Source of the DNA: Gemmatimonadota bacterium
GTDB taxonomy: Bacteria > Gemmatimonadota > Gemmatimonadetes > Gemmatimonadales > Gemmatimonadaceae
Length of the DNA stretch: 64,000 nucleotides
Assembly: GCA_016714015.1 (NCBI GenBank)
Contig: JADJNZ010000009.1
Span: 56,321 to 120,320, forward strand
Reading direction: 5' to 3'
Part shown: one piece after another, positions 32,943-64,000 of the stretch
Position numbering within the stretch: position 1 is the first letter of the stretch
How the letters are laid out: every line of letters starts with the position of its first letter
Position numbers and translations under genes: made by a program
The notes under the pieces: model-generated
Databases searched by the model: none
Told to the model about the DNA's origin: nothing
What the model saw: the letters and a program-made list of their open reading frames with translations, nothing else

Positions 32943-33016
<74 letters not shown>

Positions 33017-34025: not shown

Positions 34026-34855
34026 GCCGGGTCGCGGTGATGAAGCTCGTCAACCTCGCGACCCTCCTCGCGGTGCTCGCCCTGAACGGCCTGGCCGCGA
34101 CCGGCGCGATGAGCGGTGATTCGATCGGCGTGCTCGCCAACCGGTACGAGTCGCTGTTCCTGCCGGCGAACTACGTGTTCGGGATCTGGAGCCTGATCTA
34201 TCTCGGCTTGACGGCGTCGGTGGCCTACCAGTTGCTGCCGACCGCGGCCGCGGCGCGCGCGGTGGAGCGGATCGGTCCGTGGTGGGTGGTCGCGAGCGTG
34301 CTCAACGTGGCGTGGATCTCGCTCTTCTCGTTCTCCCGGTTCGGCGCGGCGCTGCTGGTGATGGTCGCGTTCCTCGTGGCGCTGGTGCTGACCGGTGCGC
34401 GCCTGCGCGCCCCGCTGGCGGGCGACGCCCCCGGCCTCCCCGGCGCCCCCGGCGCGCCGGGAGCGCGCCCGGTGCGCGACGGGTGGGCCGAGCGTGTGCT
34501 GGTGCGCTGGCCGTTCGACCTGTATCTCGCGTGGATCTCCGTCGCGCTCATCTCCAACACCTTCCAGTTCGCGCACGCGATCGGCTGGGGCGGCTTCGGG
34601 ATCGCCGAGTCCACGTGGGCGGTGGCGATGATGATCGTCGCGACGGTGCTCGGCGTGGTGATGGCCTGGGGCCAGCGCGCCTGGGTCTTCCCGCTGGTGG
34701 TGGCCTGGGCGCTGCGCGGGATCGGCGTGCGCCATGCGGGGCTGCCCGTGATCGCGACGGCAGTCGGGTGGCTCGTGCCGCTGGGGATCGTCGCCGGCGC
34801 CGTCGCCGTGATCGTGCGCGCGGAGCGCGGTGCGCACCGCCTCCTGAGCATGTGA
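34022..34855 (+). CDS. TspO/MBR-like tryptophan-rich sensory membrane protein
   Basis: LFLPANYVFGIWSLIY, LNVAWI, FDLYLAWISVA; multiple TMs. Confidence 0.75.
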   Translation: MSRVAVMKLVNLATLLAVLALNGLAATGAMSGDSIGVLANRYESLFLPANYVFGIWSLIYLGLTASVAYQLLPTAAAARAVERIGPWWVVASVLNVAWISLFSFSRFGAALLVMVAFLVALVLTGARLRAPLAGDAPGLPGAPGAPGARPVRDGWAERVLVRWPFDLYLAWISVALISNTFQFAHAIGWGGFGIAESTWAVAMMIVATVLGVVMAWGQRAWVFPLVVAWALRGIGVRHAGLPVIATAVGWLVPLGIVAGAVAVIVRAERGAHRLLSM

Positions 34856-34948: not shown

Positions 34949-35932
34949 ATGGCCCAAGGACCGACGTTGCTCGCGGTGCTCCGCGACCGCCTCCGCACGC
35001 GGCACTACAGTCCGCGCACCGCCGAATCGTACGAGGGGTGGGTGCGGCGGTACGTGCGGTTCCATGGGCGCCGCCACCCGCGCGAGATGGACGTGAAGGA
35101 GCTGCGGGATTTCCTGACGCATCTCGCGCGCGACCTCAAGGTGAGCGCGAGCACGCAGAACCAGGCGCTCGCCGCGATCCGGTTCCTGTATGAGGTGGTC
35201 CTCGAGCGGCCGATGGCCGCGCCGACCGATCATCTGGTCGCCAAGCGTCCGACCCGGCTTCCGACGGTCCTCTCGGCGGAGGACGTGGACCGAGTGCTCG
35301 GCGCGATGCGTGGCACGCCGCGGCTGATGGCACAGCTGCTGTACGGCAGTGGCCTTCGCGTGATGGAGTGCTGCACCTTGCGGGTGAAGGACCTCGACCC
35401 GGGCCGCGGCGAGCTGACCGTGCGGCGCGGCAAGGGCGGCACGGACCGCCGGACCATGCTGCCGGAGGGGGTGCTGGTCGGACTGCGCGAGCACCTGAAG
35501 GAGATGCGGGAGCAGCATGCGCTCGACGTGGCGCGCGGGGCGGGGTACGTCGCGTTGCCTGGCGCGCTGCGCGCGAAGCTCGGCCCCGAGTCCGGCCGTC
35601 GCTGGGAGTGGCAGTGGCTCTTCCCGGCCACGCGCGAGTACTTGGATCCGGAGTCGGGCGAGCGTCGTCGCCACCATCTCCACGAGACCGTCGTGCAGCA
35701 GTCGGTGACCGCAGCCGCGCGGGAAGTGGGCCTGAGCCAGCGGGTGACGTGTCACACGCTCCGTCACTCGTTCGCGACGCACCTGCTCGAGGCGGGGTAC
35801 GACATCCGGACGATACAGGAGCTGCTTGGCCACCGGGACGTGAGCACGACGATGATCTACACCCATGTGCTGAACCGTGGCGGGCTGGGGGTTCGGAGCC
35901 CGCTGGACGGGCTACCTCGTCGTCGGCGCTGA
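34949..35932 (+). CDS. intI: Integron integrase (tyrosine recombinase)
   Basis: [32 protein letters not shown], integron-specific insert ([25 protein letters not shown]), [35 protein letters not shown]. Confidence 0.98.
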
Positions 35933-36099
35933 GCGCGGCGCGGGGGCCGAATTAGACAGACCGGTCCAATTCACCCAAGCGGAGGCGGACGGGGGGAACG
36001 CGGCAGCTATGGCGTTCTCCTGCTGGGGGTTGCGGGGTGGCGGTCTTCGGGCGGAACGTTAGAGTGGCGGCTCGGCCTGGGGGATCTGGTGGGATTGGA

Positions 36100-36124
36100 C
36101 AGGTCAAGCCAATACACGTTATGC
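36100..36124 (+). other. Putative attI site (core GTTATGC at 36118-36124), downstream of intI
   Basis: First core site without an upstream attC hairpin; complementary to R'' GCATAAC of attC1. Confidence 0.7.
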
Positions 36125-36452
36125 GGCCGGGAACGAGTGAACTGGCAACGGCTTCCCCGCAGGTGTCGCCCGCGCCGACCCGCCTGGCCCCGCTGAACTC
36201 GGCCGTCGTGTCTTCTCTTTGGGGGGTGCGCTCGATCAGATCTGTCTGGCACCGCGGCCGGTCGCGCTCCGGTGATCTCGATTGCTCGCGCCAGCACGGG
36301 TGCCACGCGAGGTAGCGGTCCGCACGCCGGCTGGGCAAGACGTTCGCCTCTCGCAATGCCGCCGCATAACGCGGGTTGGTGACCGATGGCCGGCTATTGA
36401 TGGCGGCCGCTCCGCGGCCGCATTATTGGATCGGCCACGGCACAACCAAACG
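36119..36452 (+). other. Cassette 1, ORF-less (family A), 334 bp
   Basis: Bounded by core 36118 and attC1; no convincing gene; homologous to family C. Confidence 0.75.
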
Positions 36453-36458
36453 TTAGCT
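36364..36458 (+). repeat. attC1 (short class)
   Basis: R'' gcataac, R' gttagct. Confidence 0.95.
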
Positions 36459-36489
36459 CGCTGGAACTGACTTCGATCCAGGCAAGCAC

Positions 36490-36651
36490 ATGGAGAAGTT
36501 GCTGGTGATGCTTGTGTCGACCGTCGCGAGTGCCGCTGGCTGGTGGCTCGGGGCGCACGTCGGGATCATGACGGCCTTCATCACGAGCATCATCGCGCTG
36601 GGACTCGGCGTGTGGGGCGGTCGGCAGCTCGCGCGCCGATGGATGCTGTAG
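36490..36651 (+). CDS. Cassette 2: 53-aa two-TM membrane protein
   Basis: MEKLLVMLVSTVASAAGWWLGAHVGIMTAFITSIIALGLGVWGGRQLARRWML (below ORF-track cutoff). Confidence 0.75.
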   Translation: MEKLLVMLVSTVASAAGWWLGAHVGIMTAFITSIIALGLGVWGGRQLARRWML

Positions 36652-36671
36652 CCGACGCCTCGCGGCCCACG

Positions 36672-36804
36672 AGCTAACGGCAGTTGGTGCAGATGGCCGG
36701 CTAGGGTGGCGGGTTGGCGGCCCCGGCCTCATCGTACTTCAGGGTCGGCCGTGGCCGCCAACCCGCAATTATTGGATCGGCCACAGCACAACTAGACGTT
36801 AGCG
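36672..36804 (+). repeat. attC2
   Basis: agctaac...gttagcg. Confidence 0.95.
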
Positions 36805-36834
36805 AGACCGGAACACCTCTCGCGAGACACGAAG

Positions 36835-37239
36835 ATGCCCTTCGAGAAGATGTGGAATACGAGGCTGGTGAAAGGCGTTCCGGTGCGCCGTCGGTTCATC
36901 CTCGCTGCGTTGAGCGCTGCGGTGGTTGCTCTCGTGTGGTCGCCAATCGAACGCATGTCCGATGCGAGGAGGGCTCAGTCTATCGCGTCGTTCGAGAGCG
37001 TCTTGCCGCCGAGCGACCCTGAAAACGGATTCGTCTGCTTGTTGCGGTACCGGGAGCCACTCTACGTCGTGGACGGCCAAGAACTGTCCCCTGCCGCGGC
37101 GAATCGCATCGTCCCGGAGGCGATCGAGTCGATCGAACTCATGGACAACAAGGCGGCAGGTGCAGTCTACGGCATCCGTGCTCGTGTTGGCGTAGTGTTG
37201 ATCGCCACGCGAGCCAAGCGTCCGCCCGCGGCTCGCTAA
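36835..37239 (+). CDS. Cassette 3: membrane-anchored stand-alone TonB-receptor plug-like domain
   Basis: PLYVVDG..IESIELM..AAGAVYGIRARVGVVLIAT; stop inside R''. Confidence 0.7.
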   Translation: MPFEKMWNTRLVKGVPVRRRFILAALSAAVVALVWSPIERMSDARRAQSIASFESVLPPSDPENGFVCLLRYREPLYVVDGQELSPAAANRIVPEAIESIELMDNKAAGAVYGIRARVGVVLIATRAKRPPAAR

Positions 37240-37367
37240 CGGCGGTTGGTGACCGATGGCCGGCTAGGGTAGCGGGGCGGCGGCCCCGCCTTATCGTCAC
37301 GGGAGGGTCGGCGTGGCCGCCGCCCCGCAATTATTTGAACGGCCACGGCACAACCTTGACGTTATGC
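37234..37367 (+). repeat. attC3
   Basis: cgctaac...gttatgc. Confidence 0.95.
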
Positions 37368-45302: not shown

Positions 45303-45436
45303 GCATAACGGAGGTTGGTGCAGACGGCCGCGGTAGCGAAGCAGGTGGGCGGCCGCGCTCTGTCGTACCTTTCGGTACAGCGCGGCCGCCCACCTGCATC
45401 TTATGAAAGCGGCCGCAGCACAACCAAACGTTAGGC
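45303..45436 (+). repeat. attC13
   Basis: gcataac...gttaggc. Confidence 0.95.
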
Positions 45437-45438
45437 GA

Positions 45439-46667
45439 TGCGGAGTCAGAGGGTCATTGCAACACCATCCATCTTTCTCAGCATGGAGGTGTGCATGGAA
45501 CTCAGCAGCAGCAGTCCGCGGGGCTTCACGTCGGAGCAGCGCGGCCTCCTATGGACGTGGCATCGCGAGGGCATCGCGCGACGGGCGATCGCCGAGCGGC
45601 TCGGCAAGCTGCCGGGCTCCGTTCACTTCATCATACGCGAAGCCGGTGGGATCGCCCCACGCCAGCGCGCCCGGTCGCCGCATCAACTCTCCCTCGCGGA
45701 TCGGGAAGCGATCGAACGGGCGCTGGCGCGGGGCTCGAACTATCGGCAGATCGCGCGCTGGCTCGGGCGGGCGCCGTCGACCATCTCGCGCGAGGTCGAG
45801 CGCCATGGCGGCCCCGATATCTACTGTGCGGTGCGGGCTGACATCGCGGCCTGGGTGGCCGCGCGGCGGCCGAAGGTCTGTCGTCTGGCGACGCATCGCC
45901 CGCTCCGACGGCTCGTCGCCGCGAAGCTGCGCCTGCCGTGGTCCCCGCGCCAGATTAGTCGGTGGCTACGGCGCACCGCGCCGCACTCCCCGGAGCTTCA
46001 GGTGTCGCACGAGACGATCTACCAGTCGCTCTACATTCAGTCGCGCAATGTGCTGCGGAAGGAGCTGACGCAGGAGCTGCGGCGTCGACGCGTCGTGCGC
46101 GTGGCGCGCACGGCGACCCGGAAACGGCAAGGGCGCGGGCAGATCGTCGACGCGATCCCAATCAGCCAGCGACCGCCGGACGTCGCCGATCGCGCGGTCC
46201 CTGGCCACTGGGAAGGCGATCTCATCGCCGGGCGGAACAACAGCTACATCGCCACGCTCGTCGAGCGCACGACGCGCTTCGTCATTCTGGTGAAGGTCCC
46301 GAGCAAGGAGACGACGACCGTCATCCCGGCGCTCATCCGTCAGATCAAACGACTGCCGGCGCACCTGAAGCGATCGCTCACCTGGGACCGCGGCACCGAG
46401 CTTGCCCACCATCGCGTCTTCTCGGTGGCCACCGGCGTGCAGGTCTACTTCTGCGATCCGCAGAGCCCGTGGCAGCGCGGGTCGAACGAGAACACGAACG
46501 GCCTGCTGCGGCAGTACTTCCCGAAAGGCGTGGATCTCTCCAGCTTCACGCAGCGACAGTTGGACGCGGTGGCCGATCGGCTGAACGGCCGGCCGCGGGA
46601 GACGCTGGGGTTCGAGTGCCCGGCGGAAGTGATTGCTCGGCTGTTGCGTTGATCACCTGATTCTACC
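45439..46667 (+). mobile_element. IS30-family insertion sequence
   Basis: Imperfect 26-bp inverted repeats (17/26) at 45439-45464 and 46642-46667; GA dinucleotide on both flanks. Confidence 0.88.
45495..46652 (+). CDS. IS30-family DDE transposase
   Basis: RAPSTISREV, VSHETIYQSLY, GHWEGDLI, LTWDRGTE, WQRGSNENTNGLLRQYFPK. Confidence 0.97.
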   Translation: MELSSSSPRGFTSEQRGLLWTWHREGIARRAIAERLGKLPGSVHFIIREAGGIAPRQRARSPHQLSLADREAIERALARGSNYRQIARWLGRAPSTISREVERHGGPDIYCAVRADIAAWVAARRPKVCRLATHRPLRRLVAAKLRLPWSPRQISRWLRRTAPHSPELQVSHETIYQSLYIQSRNVLRKELTQELRRRRVVRVARTATRKRQGRGQIVDAIPISQRPPDVADRAVPGHWEGDLIAGRNNSYIATLVERTTRFVILVKVPSKETTTVIPALIRQIKRLPAHLKRSLTWDRGTELAHHRVFSVATGVQVYFCDPQSPWQRGSNENTNGLLRQYFPKGVDLSSFTQRQLDAVADRLNGRPRETLGFECPAEVIARLLR

Positions 46668-46682
46668 GAACTCCCACCATCT

Positions 46683-47036
46683 GTGCTGGACCAGCAACGC
46701 ATTCAGTCCCTCGTGGACTTGCAGCTATCCTCGATCGCGGATCCGAGAGTTGCCGATGCTATCCGGCAACTGCTCGTCGTCCCGCGTGAAGAGCCGCGCC
46801 CTTGGGACTACGGCTTGCCGGATCACTCATATGCTTGCTGGATGGTTCTTGAGCATGCGGCCTCGAATACCGGCATCTGCTACTGTGCTCAGGGATTCGG
46901 GCCCAAGTCTCCGTGGGGCCTCCTGTTCCTCAAGGGCCCGCACAAAGGCATGGGCATGGACTCCTCGTGGTTTCAATCGCTCGAAGAGGCGTTCAGGGAT
47001 TCGCACGCGTTCGATCTCGGTAGCGAGTCGAGCTGA
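46683..47036 (+). CDS. Cassette 14: hypothetical protein (cassette 5' end interrupted by IS30)
   Basis: 117 aa filling the remaining cassette. Confidence 0.75.
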   Translation: MLDQQRIQSLVDLQLSSIADPRVADAIRQLLVVPREEPRPWDYGLPDHSYACWMVLEHAASNTGICYCAQGFGPKSPWGLLFLKGPHKGMGMDSSWFQSLEEAFRDSHAFDLGSESS

Positions 47037-47078
47037 CGGTGCGTGTAGGCTCATGTGCCGCGAGTCGCGCGCGCGGTC

Positions 47079-47212
47079 GCCTAACGGAGGTTGGTGCAGT
47101 CGGCCGCGTTAGGGAAGCAGGTGGGCGGCCGCGCTTTATCGTACACTTCGGTACGGCGCGGCCGCCCACCTGCATTTTATGAAAGCGGCCGCAGCACAAC
47201 CAAACGTTAGCC
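47079..47212 (+). repeat. attC14
   Basis: gcctaac...gttagcc. Confidence 0.95.
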
Positions 47213-47225
47213 GGAGCAACAAGCA

Positions 47226-47720
47226 ATGCTGCTACGCCTGTTGTTACTGCTTGCGTTCCTCGCGCCGCCAGGGATCGCACAGGAACGCCTGGAGCCTGAC
47301 GTGCTTGCGGCAATCGCTAGGCTCGGTGAACGGCGTACTCTGAACCTCGTCTCGGGGTGGCGGGACTCAATTCCGGTGCGGACTCTCGTCCTGTCTGCGC
47401 GAGGCTTCTCGTCAGCGGATTCCGGGCTTGTGCTCGCGCCGCTGCGCGCGGCATTCGGCGCGAACGAGCCGGACTCGCTGCCCGCGCATTGGTTTAGCGT
47501 CGAGATCAGATTGCGCAGCGTTTCCGTCGACACCGTTGTGATTGAGTGGAGCGAGGTAGTAGACTCTCGCTGCCCGAAAGTCGGTGAGTGGGGCACCATG
47601 CTCATCGAAACGTTGCCGTTCACGCGAGCACCAGACGGCAAGTGGTCGAGTAGTACGTCTGGAGAGTTCGGTCAGACGCGTTGGCTTGCCTCTTGCCCCG
47701 ATCGGTCCCCGCCCGGCTAA
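47226..47720 (+). CDS. Cassette 15: secreted hypothetical protein
   Basis: MLLRLLLLLAFLAPPGIA signal; duplicated as cassette 21. Confidence 0.8.
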   Translation: MLLRLLLLLAFLAPPGIAQERLEPDVLAAIARLGERRTLNLVSGWRDSIPVRTLVLSARGFSSADSGLVLAPLRAAFGANEPDSLPAHWFSVEIRLRSVSVDTVVIEWSEVVDSRCPKVGEWGTMLIETLPFTRAPDGKWSSSTSGEFGQTRWLASCPDRSPPG

Positions 47721-47847
47721 CGACGGTTGGTGACCGATGGCCGGTTAGGGTAGCAGGTTGGCGGCCGCGCTTTATCGTTCCTTTCGGACCGGCGCGGCCG
47801 CCAACCTGCATCTATTTGAACGGCCACGGCACAACCTGACGTTAGAC
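47715..47847 (+). repeat. attC15
   Basis: ggctaac...gttagac. Confidence 0.95.
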
Positions 47848-49045: not shown

Positions 49046-49140
49046 ACCTAACGAAAGTTGGTGCAGATGGCCGCGCTATTGATGGCGGCCGCTCCGCGGC
49101 CGCAATATTGAAGCGTCCACAGCACAACTTGACGTTAGCC
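49046..49140 (+). repeat. attC17 (short class)
   Basis: acctaac...gttagcc. Confidence 0.95.
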
Positions 49141-51133: not shown

Positions 51134-51261
51134 CGGCAGTTGGTGCAGGCGGCCGCGCTGGGGTAGCGGTTGGGCGGCCGTGCTTTATCGTACCTGAAGG
51201 TACCGCACGGCCGCCCAACCGCATTCTATGGAAGCGGCCGCTGCACAACTTGACGTTAGCC
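51128..51261 (+). repeat. attC20
   Basis: ggctaac...gttagcc. Confidence 0.95.
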
Positions 51262-51274
51262 GGAGCAACAAGCA

Positions 51275-51769
51275 ATGCTGCTACGCCTGTTGTTACTGCT
51301 TGCGTTCCTCGCGCCGCCAGGGATCGCACAGGAACGCCTGGAGCCTGACGTGCTTGCGGCAATCGCTAGGCTCGGTGAACGGCGTACTCTGAACCTCGTC
51401 TCGGGGTGGCGGGACTCAATTCCGGTGCGGACTCTCGTCCTGTCTGCGCGAGGCTTCTCGTCAGCGGATTCCGGGCTTGTGCTCGCGCCGCGCTGCGCGG
51501 CATTCGGCGCGAACGAGCCGGACTCGCTGCCCGCGCATTGGTTTAGCGTCGAGATCAGATTGCGCAGCGTTTCCGTCGACACCGTTGTGATTGAGTGGAG
51601 CGAGGTAGTAGACTCTCGCTGCCCGAAAGTCGGTGAGTGGGGCACCATGCTCATCGAAACGTTGCCGTTCACGCGAGCACCAGACGGCAAGTGGTCGAGT
51701 AGTACGTCTGGAGAGTTCGGTCAGACGCGTTGGCTTGCCTCTTGCCCCGATCGGTCCCCGCCCGGCTAA
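51275..51769 (+). CDS. Cassette 21: near-identical duplicate of cassette 15
   Basis: 164 aa; differs from cassette 15 at LR vs RC. Confidence 0.8.
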   Translation: MLLRLLLLLAFLAPPGIAQERLEPDVLAAIARLGERRTLNLVSGWRDSIPVRTLVLSARGFSSADSGLVLAPRCAAFGANEPDSLPAHWFSVEIRLRSVSVDTVVIEWSEVVDSRCPKVGEWGTMLIETLPFTRAPDGKWSSSTSGEFGQTRWLASCPDRSPPG

Positions 51770-51896
51770 CGACGGTTGGTGACCGATGGCCGGTTAGGGT
51801 AGCAGGTTGGCGGCCGCGCTTTATCGTTCCTTTCGGACCGGCGCGGCCGCCAACCTGCATCTATTTGAACGGCCACGGCACAACCTGACGTTAGGC
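51764..51896 (+). repeat. attC21
   Basis: ggctaac...gttaggc. Confidence 0.95.
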
Positions 51897-52412: not shown

Positions 52413-52546
52413 GCCTAACGGCAGTTGGTGCAGACGGCCGCGCTGGGGTAGCGGTTGGGCGGCCGTGCTTTATCGTACCTGAAGGTACCGCACGGCCGCC
52501 CAACCGCATTTTATGAAAGCGGCCGCTGCACAACTTGACGTTATGC
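52413..52546 (+). repeat. attC22
   Basis: gcctaac...gttatgc. Confidence 0.95.
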
Positions 52547-52845
52547 GGCGCCTCACCCGTCGCGATCGAGGTCGAAGCTCGGCCGAGATCGCTTGGGGTG
52601 AACAGCAACCACGAGGGACGACCGCACCGCACCCGTGGAGGTTGACCCGGTCCGCCCCTCGTCGCTCGTGCTGTCGGGACCTCTGCACGTTGGCCCCAGG
52701 TAGGGCGGATGGTTCGCCGCGCGATTCGTTCGCTCCCTGGCACCGGGCGGCGGCCTCGCATAACGCCGCTTGGTGCCGATGGCCGGCTATTGATGGCGGC
52801 CGCTCCGCGGCCGCATTATTCAATCGGCCACAGCACAAGCCAACG
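52541..52845 (+). other. Cassette 23, ORF-less (family B1), 305 bp
   Basis: No ORF confined to the cassette; paralog of cassette 25. Confidence 0.75.
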
Positions 52846-53132: not shown

Positions 53133-53261
53133 CGGCAGTTGGTGACCGACGGCCGCGTTACTGAAGCAGGTGGGCGGCCGTGCTCTTTTGTACCTTTCGG
53201 TATCGCACGGCCGCCCACCTGCATTCTATTGAAGCGGCCGCGGCACAACTTGACGTTATGC
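53127..53261 (+). repeat. attC24
   Basis: gcataac...gttatgc. Confidence 0.95.
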
Positions 53262-53560
53262 GGCGCCCCACCCGTCGCGATCGAGTTCGAAGCTCGGCCG
53301 AGATCGTTTGGGGTGAACGGCAACAACGATGGACGGCAGCACCTCACCCGTGGGACTTGACCCGGTCCGCCCCTCGTCGCTCGTGCCGTCGGGACCTCTG
53401 CACGTTGGCCCCAGGTAGGGCGGATGGTTCGCCGCGCGATTCGTCCGCCCCCTGGCACCGGGCGGCGGCCGCGCATAACGACGCTTGGTGCCGATGGCCG
53501 ACTATTGATGGCGGCCGCTCCGCGGCCGCATTATTCAATCGGCCACAGCACAAGCCAACG
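53256..53560 (+). other. Cassette 25, ORF-less (family B2), 305 bp
   Basis: Same length as and colinear with cassette 23. Confidence 0.75.
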
Positions 53561-60204: not shown

Positions 60205-60338
60205 GGCTAACGGCGGTTGGTGCAGATGGCCGTGCTAGGGTAGCGGGGCGGCGGCCCCGCCTTATCGTACTACTTGGGTCGGCGTGGCCGCCGCCCCGCA
60301 AATTGTTGGAACGGCCACGGCACAACCTGACGTTATGT
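60205..60338 (+). repeat. attC37
   Basis: ggctaac...gttatgt. Confidence 0.95.
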
Positions 60339-60389
60339 GGACGCGAGCGCGGGATGGCTCTACGACCGCTCGCCCCCTAGATTCCGTTC

Positions 60390-60584
60390 ATGCGTCTCTC
60401 CTTCGAGCTCACCGAGGCCCAGCAGGGCCAGCTCAACGCCATCGCCCAGCGGCTGAACGTGCCGGTGGACGCACTGGCGGCTGCCGCGTTGCGTGACCTG
60501 CTCGACCGTCGCGAGGCCGCCTACGAGACCGCGGCCCGCCATGTCGTCGAGAAGAACGCCGAACTCTACCGAAAGCTCGCGTAG
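60390..60584 (+). CDS. Cassette 38: antitoxin (RHH-like DNA-binding, Doc partner)
   Basis: 64 aa ending HVVEKNAELYRKLA, directly upstream of doc. Confidence 0.85.
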   Translation: MRLSFELTEAQQGQLNAIAQRLNVPVDALAAAALRDLLDRREAAYETAARHVVEKNAELYRKLA

Positions 60585-60599
60585 CGGGCGCCCGTTCGC

Positions 60600-60998
60600 G
60601 TGGCGACCCGGTTCCTTTCGCTCGCAGAAGTCCTCGATCTCTACAGCCGCGTGTTGGTCGCCGGCGGGGGCGCGTCTGCTATTCGCGATCTCGGCGCGCT
60701 GGAGTCCGCGCTCGCGCAGCCACGTGCGACGTTTGCCGACGAGGATCTCTATCCGTCGCTCGCCGAGAAGGCGTCCGCCCTTGGCTTCTCGCTCATCCTC
60801 AATCACCCGTTCGTCGACGGCAACAAGCGCATCGGCCACGCGGCGGTTGAAGTCTTTCTGGTGCTGAACGGCTTCGAGCTGTCGGCAGGGATTGATGACG
60901 CCGAACGGGTCATCCTCGGCGTTGCGGCGGGGACAATCAGTCGGGACGAGTTCACGACGTGGATCCGAGAATCTCTCGTCGCATTCCCGGCACCGTAG
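60600..60998 (+). CDS. doc: Cassette 38: death-on-curing (Fic-fold) toxin
   Basis: IRDLGALESALAQP, NHPFVDGNKRIG. Confidence 0.93.
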   Translation: MATRFLSLAEVLDLYSRVLVAGGGASAIRDLGALESALAQPRATFADEDLYPSLAEKASALGFSLILNHPFVDGNKRIGHAAVEVFLVLNGFELSAGIDDAERVILGVAAGTISRDEFTTWIRESLVAFPAP

Positions 60999-61015
60999 CG
61001 GATCGGACGGGCGCC

Positions 61016-61149
61016 ACATAACGGCAGTTGGTGCAGACGGCCGCGCTGGGGTAGCGGTTGGGCGGCCGTGCTTTATCGTACCTGACGGTACCGCACGGCC
61101 GCCCAACCGCATCTTATGGAAGCGGCCGCAGCACAACTTGACGTTAGCC
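61016..61149 (+). repeat. attC38
   Basis: acataac...gttagcc. Confidence 0.95.
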
Positions 61150-61396: not shown

Positions 61397-61530
61397 GGCT
61401 AACGGAGGTTGGTGCAGACGGCCGCGTTAGGGAAGCAGGTGGGCGGCCGTGCTCTTTTGTACCTTTCGGTATCGCACGGCCGCCCACCTGCATCTTATGG
61501 AAGCGGCCGCAGCACAACCAAACGTTATGC
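61397..61530 (+). repeat. attC39
   Basis: ggctaac...gttatgc. Confidence 0.95.
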
Positions 61531-61861
61531 GGGCGGGGGACAGCCAACTGGCGTCGGCGTCACCGCGTGGGAAGTACAGCCCGAGGCATCGACGCCGCTG
61601 AACGTCGGCGTCCTCAATCCCACCGCTTTGGGGAGCGCGCTCCGCCAGGATCAAGCGACGCCGCGGCTCGGAGGGCTTCGCCGGGCGTCCGCGCGCCCGC
61701 ATTGCGTACGAGGTGGTCGGTCCGGCGCGCGCGCGAGGGTGGGCGCGCGGGGGTGAGTACGGCGGGCCACCGCATAACGGCAGTTGGTGCAGATGGCCGC
61801 GCTATTGATGGCGGCGCGCTCCGCGGCCGCATTATTGAAGCGGCCACAGCACAACCACACG
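61525..61861 (+). other. Cassette 40, ORF-less (family C1)
   Basis: 337 bp; only a 24-codon 5' ORF. Confidence 0.8.
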
Positions 61862-61867
61862 TTATGC
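61772..61867 (+). repeat. attC40 (short class)
   Basis: gcataac...gttatgc. Confidence 0.95.
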
Positions 61868-62198
61868 GGGCGGGGGACAGCCAACTGGCGTCGGCGTCAC
61901 CGCGTGGGAAGTACAGCCCGAGGCATCGACGCCGCTGAACATGGGCGTCCTCAAGCCCACCGCTTTGGGGAGCGCGCTCCGCCAGGATCGAAGCGCCGCC
62001 GCGGCTCGGAGCCGCCTCGCCGGGCGTCCGCGCGCTGGCATTGCTTACGAGGTGGTCGGTCGGCGCGCGCGCGAGAGTGGGCGCGCGGGGGTGAGGACGG
62101 CGGGCCGCCGCATAACGGCAGTTGGTGCAGATGGCCGCGCTATTGATGGCGGCCGCTCCGCGGCCGCACTATTGGGGCGGCCACTGCACAACCAAACG
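61862..62198 (+). other. Cassette 41, ORF-less (family C2)
   Basis: 337 bp paralog. Confidence 0.8.
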
Positions 62199-62204
62199 TT
62201 AGCT
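62110..62204 (+). repeat. attC41 (short class)
   Basis: gcataac...gttagct. Confidence 0.95.
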
Positions 62205-62222
62205 GGACGGGAGCGGAGATCA

Positions 62223-62633
62223 GTGAAGCCGAATGCCGCCAGTTTGCGCGCGTTGTGCGAGTGCTACACGCCGATCGGCGTGATCTATCCGTGGAGACGC
62301 GCGCTCAAGCGCGCCGGTTACGCGCGGGTCCGATCACAGTTGGTGCCTGACTGGCTGGTGCCGGTGCTACGAGACAATCCGCAGCTGATCGAGGGATGGG
62401 TGCGCTACGTGGAGGACAAGCGAGGCGACTTCGGCTGGATCCTGCAGCAGCGAGCCGACCTGCGCTGGGTGGTCTGCTATCGCGCCGACTGCCAGTGGCC
62501 GGCCACGTACGAGGACGGCGCAATCGCGTGCGCGCAGTTCCTGGTCCGCGAGTTCGAGGTGCTGTACGGCAGGCCCCGTGGGAACGCAAACGGTGGCACT
62601 TTGCACCGGAGTCCGGGTGTGGCCGCCAGCTAA
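62223..62633 (+). CDS. Cassette 42: hypothetical protein
   Basis: GGAG RBS; stop inside R''. Confidence 0.7.
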   Translation: MKPNAASLRALCECYTPIGVIYPWRRALKRAGYARVRSQLVPDWLVPVLRDNPQLIEGWVRYVEDKRGDFGWILQQRADLRWVVCYRADCQWPATYEDGAIACAQFLVREFEVLYGRPRGNANGGTLHRSPGVAAS

Positions 62634-62761
62634 CGGCAGTTGGTGACCGACGGCCGTCTAGGGGAGCAGGTGGGCGGCCGTGCTCTTTTGTACCTTTCGG
62701 TATCGCACGGCCGCCCACCTGCATTTCATGAAAGCGGCCGCGGCACAACTTGACGTTATGC
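62628..62761 (+). repeat. attC42
   Basis: agctaac...gttatgc. Confidence 0.95.
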
Positions 62762-63091
62762 GGGCGGGGGACAGCCAACTGGCGTCGGCGTCACCGCGTG
62801 GGAAGTACAGCCCGAGGCATCGACGCCGCTGAACATGGGCGTCCTCAAGCCCAACGCTTTGGGGAGCGCGCTCCGCCAGGATCGAGCGCCGCCGCGGCTC
62901 GGAGCGCCTCGCCGGGCGTCCGCGCGCTGGCATTGCTTACGAGGTGGTCGGTCCGGCGCGCGCGCGAGAGTGGGCGCGCGGGGGTGAGGACGGCGGGCCG
63001 CCGCATAACGGCAGTTGGTGCAGATGGCCGCGCTATTGATGGCGGCCGCTCCGCGGCCGCATTATTGGGGCGGCCACTGCACAACCAAACG
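62756..63091 (+). other. Cassette 43, ORF-less (family C3)
   Basis: 336 bp paralog. Confidence 0.8.
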
Positions 63092-63097
63092 TTATGC
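63003..63097 (+). repeat. attC43 (short class)
   Basis: gcataac...gttatgc. Confidence 0.95.
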
Positions 63098-63427
63098 GGG
63101 CGGGGGACAGCCAACTGGCGTCGGCGTCACCGCGTGGGAAGTACAGCCCGAGGCATCGACGCCGCTGAACATGGGCGTCCTCAAGCCCACCGCTTTGGGG
63201 AGCGCGCTCCGCCAGGAGCGAGCGCCGTCGCGGATCGGAGCGCTTCGCCGGGCGTCCGCGCGCCGGCATTGCGTACGAGGTGGTCGGTCCGGCGCGCGCG
63301 CGCGGGTGGGCGCGCGGGGGTGAGGACGGCGGGCCGCCGCATAACGGCAGTTGGTGCAGATGGCCGCGCTATTGATGGCGGCCGCTCCGCGGCCGCATTA
63401 TTGGAGCGGCCACAGCACAACCAAACG
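63092..63427 (+). other. Cassette 44, ORF-less (family C4)
   Basis: 336 bp paralog. Confidence 0.8.
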
Positions 63428-63433
63428 TTATGC
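63339..63433 (+). repeat. attC44 (short class)
   Basis: gcataac...gttatgc. Confidence 0.95.
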
Positions 63434-63763
63434 GGGCGGGGGACAGCCAACTGGCGTCGGCGTCACCGCGTGGGAAGTACAGCCCGAGGCATCGACGCCG
63501 CTGAACGTGGGCGTCCTCAATCCCACAACTTTGGGGAGCGCGCTCCGCCAGGATCGAGTGCCGCCGCGGCGCGGAGCGCTTCGCCGGGCGTTCGCGCGCC
63601 GGCATTGCTTACGAGGGGGTCGGTCCGGCGCGCGCGCGAGGGTGGGCGCGCGGGGGTGAGGACGGCGGGCCGCCGCATAACGGCAGTTGGTGCAGATGGC
63701 CGCGCTATTGATGGCGGCCGCTCCGCGGCCGCATTATTGGAGCGGCCACAGCACAACCAAACG
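63428..63763 (+). other. Cassette 45, ORF-less (family C5)
   Basis: 336 bp paralog. Confidence 0.8.
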
Positions 63764-63769
63764 TTAGGG
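63675..63769 (+). repeat. attC45 (short class)
   Basis: gcataac...gttaggg. Confidence 0.95.
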
Positions 63770-63791
63770 CGACGAGACCGGCATCGATCGT

Positions 63792-64000
63792 ATGCTAAGC
63801 GCGCACACCGCTCGTTGGCTGTTGTGTCCCCTCGCTGCCGTCGGCTCATGCGGAGCGACAGGCATCGCGTCGCGGGGCGTCCAAGGGTGGCTCCAGACAC
63901 GCCTCGGCCAGGCGACGCTTGAGGCAGTGCTTCCGCTAGATGGACAGGAAGCCGTCCGCCTCGCGCTCGAGGCCCTCGTGTTCGTCTTGGCCGGTTCGCT
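63792..64000 (+). CDS. Cassette 46: probable exported protein, truncated by the window end
   Basis: MLSAHTARWLLCPLAAVGSC..., open to the end. Confidence 0.55.
   Translation, partial: MLSAHTARWLLCPLAAVGSCGATGIASRGVQGWLQTRLGQATLEAVLPLDGQEAVRLALEALVFVLAGS

Follow-up and report, generated by a model that had tools for sequence, protein, structure and literature searches.

Gene-less cassettes are a recognised yet poorly understood fraction of integron arrays. To our knowledge, the only role that has been demonstrated for them is promoter activity, in AT-rich cassettes of Vibrio and Treponema. They account for 6–49 % of the cassettes in Vibrio arrays, where many have promoter activity and some come from degenerated genes, and the class is defined by the lack of an annotated gene and of any open reading frame (ORF) longer than 210 bp (PMC11014356). 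Here we analyse a 64,000-nucleotide (nt) stretch of a Gemmatimonadota genome (contig JADJNZ010000009.1, positions 56,321 to 120,320; hereafter the window) that contains an integron whose first cassette, cassette 1, is related to five distal cassettes of the same array, family C. The longest ORF of cassette 1 has 64 codons in sense and 69 in antisense, hence none above 70 codons, and cassette 1 is a real member of the known gene-less class. Cassette 1 and its relatives very probably constitute a mobile non-coding cassette family. The best reading of our results is that the family has no function of its own and is a self-propagating gene-less 'empty' cassette driven by its short attC site, to which we assign a probability of roughly 0.5.

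Cassette 1 lies in an array beside an integrase gene and attI, starts at a G|TT crossover and terminates in an attC. The integrase gene intI (34949–35932, + strand; TIGR02249, 407 bits against a cutoff of 265) has its nearest named relatives in metagenome-assembled genomes of Gemmatimonadota/Gemmatimonadaceae. It is on the same strand as the cassette ORFs and attI lies downstream of it, making intI co-directional with the cassette array. This is the 'inverted' arrangement familiar from Treponema. The attI core ATTGGACAGGTCAAGCCAATACACG (36094–36118, + strand) is conserved in three related integrons (L050, L051 and L052; IntI 87–89 % identical), and the attI motif ATTAGACAG / ATTGGACAG, repeated at 35941–35949 and 36094–36102, is conserved in related Gemmatimonadota integrons. 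The three have ...ATTAGACAGGTCAA(G/T)CCAATACACGTT in common, also given as ...GTCAA(G/T)CCAATACACGTT, and the window version is ATTGGACAG. Window and relatives part immediately past ...CACGTT, and because L050–L052 diverge directly after the common attI sequence we place the attI crossover at G36118|T36119. The contigs of these relatives end 200–320 nt past intI; they confirm attI and yielded no further cassettes. Exact look-ups of four proteins of the window (cassette 2 ORF, S9 peptidase, cassette 4 ORF and IntI) returned no record. No Pc-like promoter was detected at the integron.

A hidden Markov model (HMM) of attC 3′ ends found 45 attC sites between 36416 and 63768, and therefore 45 complete cassettes in the window, with the array continuing beyond 64000. 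The first 8 nt of every one of the 45 are the reverse complement of the 8 nt ending its own R″ (median perfect run 8, range 6–9), and these R′/R″ 8-mers vary from cassette to cassette while the complementarity holds. Since the rule applies to each cassette, we consider the cassette boundaries validated. A previous inspection of the letters, the sequence-only reading, had set cassette 1 at 36119–36452, and those boundaries are right, from the attI crossover to an end at G36452.

All features of cassette 1 are given on the + strand. The cassette (A-type, gene-less, 334 nt, 36119–36452; body HMM match E=7.5e-45) is made of a 245-nt body and an 89-nt attC, with the 3′ end at the G of the next G|TTAGC core. 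The short attC, common to cassette 1 and family C and about 27 % of the length of cassette 1, is at 36362–36452 with core CTATTGATGGCGGCCGCTCCGCGGCCGCATTATT. It measures 89 nt from GCATAAC at 36364 and reads GCATAAC...GTTGGTG...GCACAAC...G|TTAGC with R″-L″...L′-R′ inverted repeats (attC 3′-end HMM E=2e-14); the same type is found in cassettes 17, 23, 25, 40, 41, 43, 44 and 45. The first 8 nt of the cassette, TTATGCGG (36119–36126), derive from the R′ of its own attC and are the reverse complement of CCGCATAA at 36362–36369; the reverse-complementary match between TTATGCGGC and GCCGCATAA extends over 9 nt. Three blocks stand out in the body, namely AACTGGC (36140–36146), which does not vary among the full-length copies aligned from A, D and C, the invariant block GCTGAAC (36192–36198) and the best conserved block CTTTGGGG..GCGCTC (36217–36233), whose reading frame differs between family members.

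Homology of cassette 1 to the five distal cassettes, a central claim of the sequence-only reading, is borne out by the bodies themselves. With the attC removed, cassette 1 and the C bodies have 145–152 identities over 245 nt (about 60 %) and global scores of 18–28, compared to −26 +/- 6.5 for dinucleotide shuffles (z 6.6–8.3) and a maximum of −10 among 410 natural control segments. As the scores exceed both shuffles and natural controls, the homology is real. The length of 334 nt also compares as described, with 337, 337, 336, 336 and 336 nt for C1 to C5. These copies, all on the + strand, are C1 (cassette 40, 61525–61861), C2 (cassette 41, 61862–62198, with +1, +1 and −1 indels relative to the other C copies), C3 (cassette 43, 62756–63091), C4 (cassette 44, 63092–63427) and C5 (cassette 45, 63428–63763, with an RNA-library contig spanning 63405–63768). 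The ordered blocks reported for cassette 1 and family C are all present in the MAFFT alignment; two of them, ATGCGG and CCGCATAAC, are the R′/R″ of the cassette's own attC and do not count as conservation of the body.

We found 13 family copies with nhmmer at E values of 1e-26 to 1e-75. A pattern scan of JGI metagenome contigs yielded five true homologs: three C-type (L003, L010 and L008) and two of a separate lineage D (L004 1601–1974 and L006 99–472). The bodies on L003 and L010 are 94–100 % identical to the C copies of the window, and C4 is essentially identical to L003 (local score 334 over 336 aligned nt; body 100 %). The D body is 64–67 % identical to C and 60–66 % to A, and the attC attached to it is long (about 130 nt). 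D is a mosaic, A-like over columns 2–75 (13 mismatches versus 27) and C-like over columns 76–165 (19 versus 33), and recombination among family members is therefore indicated. Using HMMER to look for relatives of the 64-codon ORF in cassette 1, we obtained two ORF calls, P0121 and P0122, whose contigs hold two further A-type cassettes (L055 from 3162 and L054 from 698; body 82–90 % identical to cassette 1). The family thus comprises three lineages: A, to which cassette 1 and the two metagenome cassettes belong, C, which has five members in the window and is common in wastewater, and D. Scans of GTDB species representatives with two patterns based on GCTGAAC...TTTGGGG...GCGCTC gave 0 and 37 matches, the 37 all being chance according to nhmmer, and a scan of IMG/VR viral contigs gave one match, also chance. 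At least 20 DNA runs of wastewater or activated sludge, drawn from many studies, contain C-type k-mers; cassette 1 itself is rare. The family is carried by a clade of activated-sludge Gemmatimonadota.

The family appears to be mobile, as had been proposed. A-type copies are found behind attI in the window and behind two different attCs on L054 and L055, and the related integrons L050–L052 carry other cassettes at position 1. The C-type has at least six different upstream or downstream neighbours across the window, metagenome contigs and RNA contigs, and family neighbours differ in L003, L004, L006, L008, L010, L054, L055 and RNA contigs. Within the window the C copies stand in tandem (C1-C2 and C3-C4-C5) with mutual identities of 94–100 %. 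The recurrence of the same unit behind differing neighbours suggests that the family is excised and inserted by IntI. The integrase would excise the unit by attC × attC recombination and re-insert it at attI, the textbook integron mechanism (PMC11014356), and such events would account both for the first place of cassette 1 and for the tandem arrangement of C.

The description of cassette 1 as ORF-less is right in that we found no conserved protein and no ORF above 70 codons. It overlooks that the ATG in the TTATGC core, within the R′-derived 8-mer, opens a 64-codon ORF (36121–36315, + strand) that ends at a TAG within CGAGGTAG and that we judge to be without protein-level selection. From the same ATG the frame runs for 70 codons in L055, 81 in L054 and 24 in every C and D copy, stopping in C and D at a TGA at codon 25, inside GCTGAAC, and in cassette 1 at the TAG at codon 65. 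The indels between lineages are 1, 4, 4 and 5 nt, not multiples of three. Mismatches by codon position have no three-base periodicity (D-C 25/26/33, A-C 28/32/34, A-D 28/27/28, within C 10/6/11). GC content by phase in the family is 0.6–0.8 without a dip at the second codon position (GC2), compared to 0.65/0.50–0.56/0.71–0.77 in real cassette ORFs of the array. Longest sense ORFs are 42–50 codons in C1 and C3–C5; C2 has an 80-codon GTG frame, the product of its own indels.

It is conceivable that the A-lineage frame, from core ATG to R″ TAA, encodes a small protein of 64–81 amino acids of which C and D are pseudogenised copies. In L054 nothing interrupts the frame between the ATG and the R″ TAA, and the same is true of L055, which has an in-frame 33-nt deletion; gene callers predicted both P0121 and P0122; the same ATG-in-core/TAA-in-R″ layout occurs in the genuine ORFs of cassettes 4, 12, 13 and 31; and in lineage A phase GC peaks (0.75–0.82) at the third position of this frame. 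Against these points, the ratio of nonsynonymous to synonymous change (pN/pS) of the ATG frame within lineage A is 2.5, 1.8 and 1.1, the mismatches between cassette 1 and L055 fall 5/13/4 by codon position with position 2 in excess, and L054 has the conserved CTTTGGGG..GCGCTC block shifted to another frame for about 10 codons. By our estimate an open frame of 81 codons arises by chance in about one in five frames at 68 % GC. The product is rich in Arg, Ser, Ala and Pro and of low complexity (GC2 0.62–0.67), and C and D carry stops and frameshifts. Only two called relatives of the 64-codon ORF turned up among 1.84e9 representatives and 5.8e9 clusters, a profile made from all three ORFs of A-type returned only P0121 and P0122 again from the 5.8e9 clusters, a concatenated six-frame query found no protein there, and NCBIfam holds no match for the cassette 1 ORF. 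We consider a small protein improbable, and the bodies show no protein-level constraint in any frame. The search for a conserved full-length protein in the homologs found none, in line with the non-coding character first suggested.

Three other coding candidates were set aside. A 50-codon ORF starting at the ATG in GAACATGGG of C and D looked protein-like at first; its pN is about equal to pS, C1 and L008 lack its start codon, and C2 has a frameshift. An excess of synonymous changes in the ATG frame (14–18 against 4–8 in other frames) resembled a coding signal, and because the mismatches show no periodicity we attribute it to the content of four-fold-degenerate codons. An antisense gene, which would run from an ATG in R″ to a TAA in the R′ core, is interrupted by stops in cassette 1, L054 and D; L055 alone keeps it open, and its GC2 is about 0.79. 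Between cassette 1 and L055 this antisense frame has a pN/pS of 0.24, which we treat as unexplained noise. Over 36119–36292 of the window and 3162–3335 of L055 the mismatches are 5/13/4 by phase (p=0.036), the peak phase corresponding to the antisense third position.

The sequence-only reading had further seen the GCTGAAC block in a hairpin loop in both cassette 1 and family C, and had proposed a structured module. A GGCC/GGCC hairpin is indeed present in cassette 1 (36186–36189 and 36201–36204). Compared to shuffles its fold is unremarkable (z 0.24, and about 0 across A and D); only C, with a stable GACGCC/GGCGTC hairpin, stands out (z −1.5 to −2.4), and the hairpin is shifted or broken in A and D, with D lacking it. 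For the family as a whole, RNAalifold proposes a 71-pair consensus fold with a covariation term of −0.97 kcal/mol, in which 12 of the 71 pairs change on both sides, a number rarely reached by simple per-pair shuffles. Such shuffles look favourable but mislead because the structure was fitted to the same sequences. We addressed this by rerunning the whole pipeline on column-shuffled alignments, for both strands, the whole body and its halves. The consensus fold of eight sequences then has z=−0.63 on the + strand and +0.93 on the − strand, nine representatives from the 12-sequence, three-lineage alignment (A6) give z=+0.5 and +1.5, and sub-regions of the body range from −0.7 to +2.6, no better than shuffled alignments. 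The 12 'compensatory' pairs were dropped as RNA evidence after these shuffles.

Just one helix has a compensatory change that convinces us, namely TTATGCGG/CCGCATAA, which reads TTATGCGC/GCGCATAA in lineage D, with GCGC/GCGC replacing GCGG/CCGC by a GC to CG change; this is the R′/R″ pair of attC. A search of Rfam 15 gave no match to the cassette at gathering or permissive thresholds (E up to 10). Taken together, these results suggest that a structured non-coding RNA or DNA element, such as a riboswitch-like element or a structured small RNA (sRNA) presenting GCTGAAC in a hairpin loop, is very improbable. No secondary structure is conserved in the family bodies, at a power limited by the three lineages.

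We next consider selection on the body. Runs of at least six invariant columns are more frequent than in a permutation test (5 versus 0.7, P=0.0002), which we down-weight as it ignores alignment bias. A simulation of neutral divergence, calibrated so that identity (0.64), share of invariant columns and indel load match, and using the same aligner, leaves 4 observed runs versus 1.5 +/- 1.1 (P=0.048) and a windowed variance at P=0.064. Any block pattern beyond neutrality would therefore be borderline at most. The proposal of a selected module is thus not sustained, the substitution and block patterns of the body being nearly neutral (P ~0.05) and clear constraint being confined to attC. What constraint is visible appears to concern the recombination site, where R′/R″ complementarity is kept by the compensatory change in D. 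We suggest that selection maintains the recombination site while the 245-nt body drifts almost neutrally, and that the body may be the decayed remnant of a small gene running from an ATG in the core to a TAA in R″. The family would then most likely persist as a self-propagating 'empty' cassette, of a short attC type that also accompanies the unrelated family B described below, and any effect on the host would be passive, cassette 1 acting as a co-transcribed, untranslated spacer of about 330 nt before cassette 2.

Several observations weigh against a functionless body. The invariant columns cluster slightly more than the neutral simulation produces (P=0.048 and P=0.064), body length is kept at 245–248 nt across about 40 % divergence, and the D body is still recognisable despite a different attC type. 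Excision should readily remove useless cassettes (an argument made in PMC11014356). The C-type was assembled from eight RNA-derived libraries, in four of them at a depth of 8–15 versus 0 at neighbouring cassettes, and with just three lineages the covariation and selection tests have low power.

The RNA data deserve a closer look. C-type k-mers are found in RNA-derived libraries, and all eight libraries inspected contain C-type contigs. Four of these are metatranscriptomes depleted of ribosomal RNA, in which the C-type contigs reach a word depth of 8–15, neighbouring ORF cassettes 0, the chromosomal genes at 30.7–31.2 kb and 34.3–34.9 kb reproducibly 2–7, and intI at most 1. In the four further libraries with C-type contigs, one (X57) has the neighbours at equal coverage. 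One contig passes through attC and 136 nt into the following cassette. This evidence consists of Logan contigs without strand; DNA carry-over is possible, there are at least five copies per genome and the sampled strains may differ in array order. The cassette 1 body was found in no RNA library. The sequence-only reading had taken the first slot, in line with textbooks, for the newest and best-expressed one; for this integron, with its co-directional intI and no Pc-like promoter found, that expectation is at most putative. Matched DNA and RNA runs of one bioreactor gave no signal, the host being rare there.

An alternative is that the family is a functional non-coding regulatory cassette, whose body would carry a promoter, a protein-binding site or the seed of an unstructured trans-acting sRNA (AACTGGC, GCTGAAC, CTTTGGGG..GCGCTC). 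It would modulate the expression of downstream or upstream cassettes, an effect shown for gene-less cassettes in Vibrio superintegrons and in Treponema integrons. We regard this as a tentative alternative that is rather unlikely. Promoter activity, sense or antisense, is on record for gene-less cassettes (PMC11014356), and the 136-nt read-through, the depth of 8–15 against flanking values of 0 and the recovery of C-type from all eight libraries speak for this alternative; the three short blocks are invariant in all lineages, their clustering is borderline, and the family retains its length and is multi-copy. The depth is inflated by the at least five copies, however, and the equal coverage in X57, the strandless contigs with their possible DNA carry-over, the blank bioreactor runs (at low abundance) and the absence of the cassette 1 body from every RNA library all count against it. 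No sigma-70-like −35/−10 element was found in 35800–36900 or 61400–63900 on either strand of cassette 1 or C, and no intrinsic terminator in cassette 1 or C on either strand. The bodies have the highest GC content in the array (0.68–0.72), in contrast to the AT-rich Vibrio cases, and the spacing between blocks varies by 4 nt. A recognisable sigma-70 element is not required in promoter cassettes and such promoters are not predictable in silico (PMC11014356). A regulatory role keeps some plausibility because promoter prediction is unreliable and RNA is detectable.

The attC sites of the array fall into two length classes, nine of 88–90 nt and 36 of 127–130 nt. The short ones lie at 36364–36452, 49046–49134, 52758–52845, 53473–53560, 61772–61861, 62110–62198, 63003–63091, 63339–63427 and 63675–63763. 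Eight of the 45 cassettes lack a cassette-filling ORF: 1, 40, 41, 43, 44 and 45 of types A and C, and 23 and 25 of a family B. All eight have the short attC, compared to 1 of 37 ORF cassettes (number 17), the other 36 carrying 127–130 nt; the same eight are the GC-richest of the array. The two family B cassettes (52541–52845 and 53256–53560) are 305 nt each and 97 % identical, and their longest sense ORF is 22–29 codons. The similarity of the B body to the A and C bodies is not significant (z 0.9 and 2.5). One RNA-library contig (X51) has a B-type start after a C-type attC.

Since the short attC joins the related bodies A and C and the unrelated B, yet only 1 of 37 ORF cassettes, it could be that the functional or selfish unit is the 88–90-nt attC rather than the body, either as a hyper-recombinogenic 'selfish attC' that amplifies empty cassettes or as a mobile regulatory site. 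We regard this as speculative and unlikely. The short attC includes a weak antisense TTGGTT-16-AATAAT element, and, as an equally doubtful part of the same idea, short attC and short conserved body blocks could tune neighbouring cassettes in Gemmatimonadota integrons with co-directional intI.

Other parts of the window were noted along the way. In cassettes 4, 12, 13 and 31 (starts at 37362, 43976, 44775 and 56322) the ORF begins at the ATG within the TTATGC recombination core, and for many array ORFs the stop codon is the R″ box TAA; the recombination site thus supplies signals for translation. Cassette 38 (60333–61143) is a two-gene unit whose second ORF (60600–60998) matches the Doc (death-on-curing) toxin family TIGR01550, with the 64-amino-acid ORF upstream of it as the presumed antitoxin. 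Cassettes 15 and 21 duplicate each other (47207–47841 and 51256–51890; 635 nt each, 92–97 % identical). Cassette 14 (45431–47206) is unusually long, 1776 nt with a 404-amino-acid ORF, and metagenome contig L004 has a 90 % identical copy of its 3′ part beside a D-type cassette. On the chromosomal side of the integron, a transfer RNA gene (32943–33016, 74 bits) lies about 2 kb upstream of intI. At about 34395–34450, in a gene for a TspO-like membrane protein, RNA-library contigs have one or two additional CCCCGGCCT units at 34428; these insertions are a copy-number polymorphism of a 9-nt (3-codon) repeat.

The family adds a GC-rich counter-example from an uncultured activated-sludge phylum, and it can be traced through three diverged lineages and dozens of datasets from wastewater. 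A neutral body would mean that attC alone can drive the accumulation and amplification of 'empty' cassettes in integrons, which bears on the adaptive share of cassette metagenomes. If the body is regulatory, promoter or regulatory cassettes are extended to a new phylum and a new sequence type. The result is incremental rather than surprising under either reading.

A non-coding product encoded within an integron cassette region is reportedly known from Xanthomonas, the trans-acting sRNA-Xcc1. Compared to that sRNA, the present family yielded no defined transcript, terminator or conserved fold, and the one Xanthomonas sRNA among the Rfam matches was asX1, below threshold and at an attC (20.8 bits against 70). 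For the gene-less cassettes of Treponema (Tansirichaiya et al., cited in PMC11014356), promoter activity was measured in E. coli, whereas any such activity of our family would be putative; they have no sequence relation to cassette 1 and belong to a different phylum.

The closest likeness is to the gene-less 'promoter' cassettes of Vibrionaceae (Blanco et al. 2024, PMC11014356). Like these, our family is bounded by attC, has no ORF of 70 codons or more, sits in a long chromosomal array in several copies, possibly originates from a degenerated gene cassette, and has transcripts that cross attC. It differs in its Gemmatimonadota host, its GC-rich (0.68–0.72) and not AT-rich body, its much shorter length of 334 nt versus 491–666 nt and its distinct short attC class, and it has no promoter-like motif. 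With the ORF cassettes of its own array the family has in common the G|TTRRRY boundaries, the 8-nt R′/R″ complementarity and the ATG-in-core/TAA-in-R″ geometry. Unlike the family, those cassettes have one cassette-filling ORF, GC content of about 0.65/0.5/0.73 at the three codon positions and a 127–130-nt attC, and they are mostly single copy.

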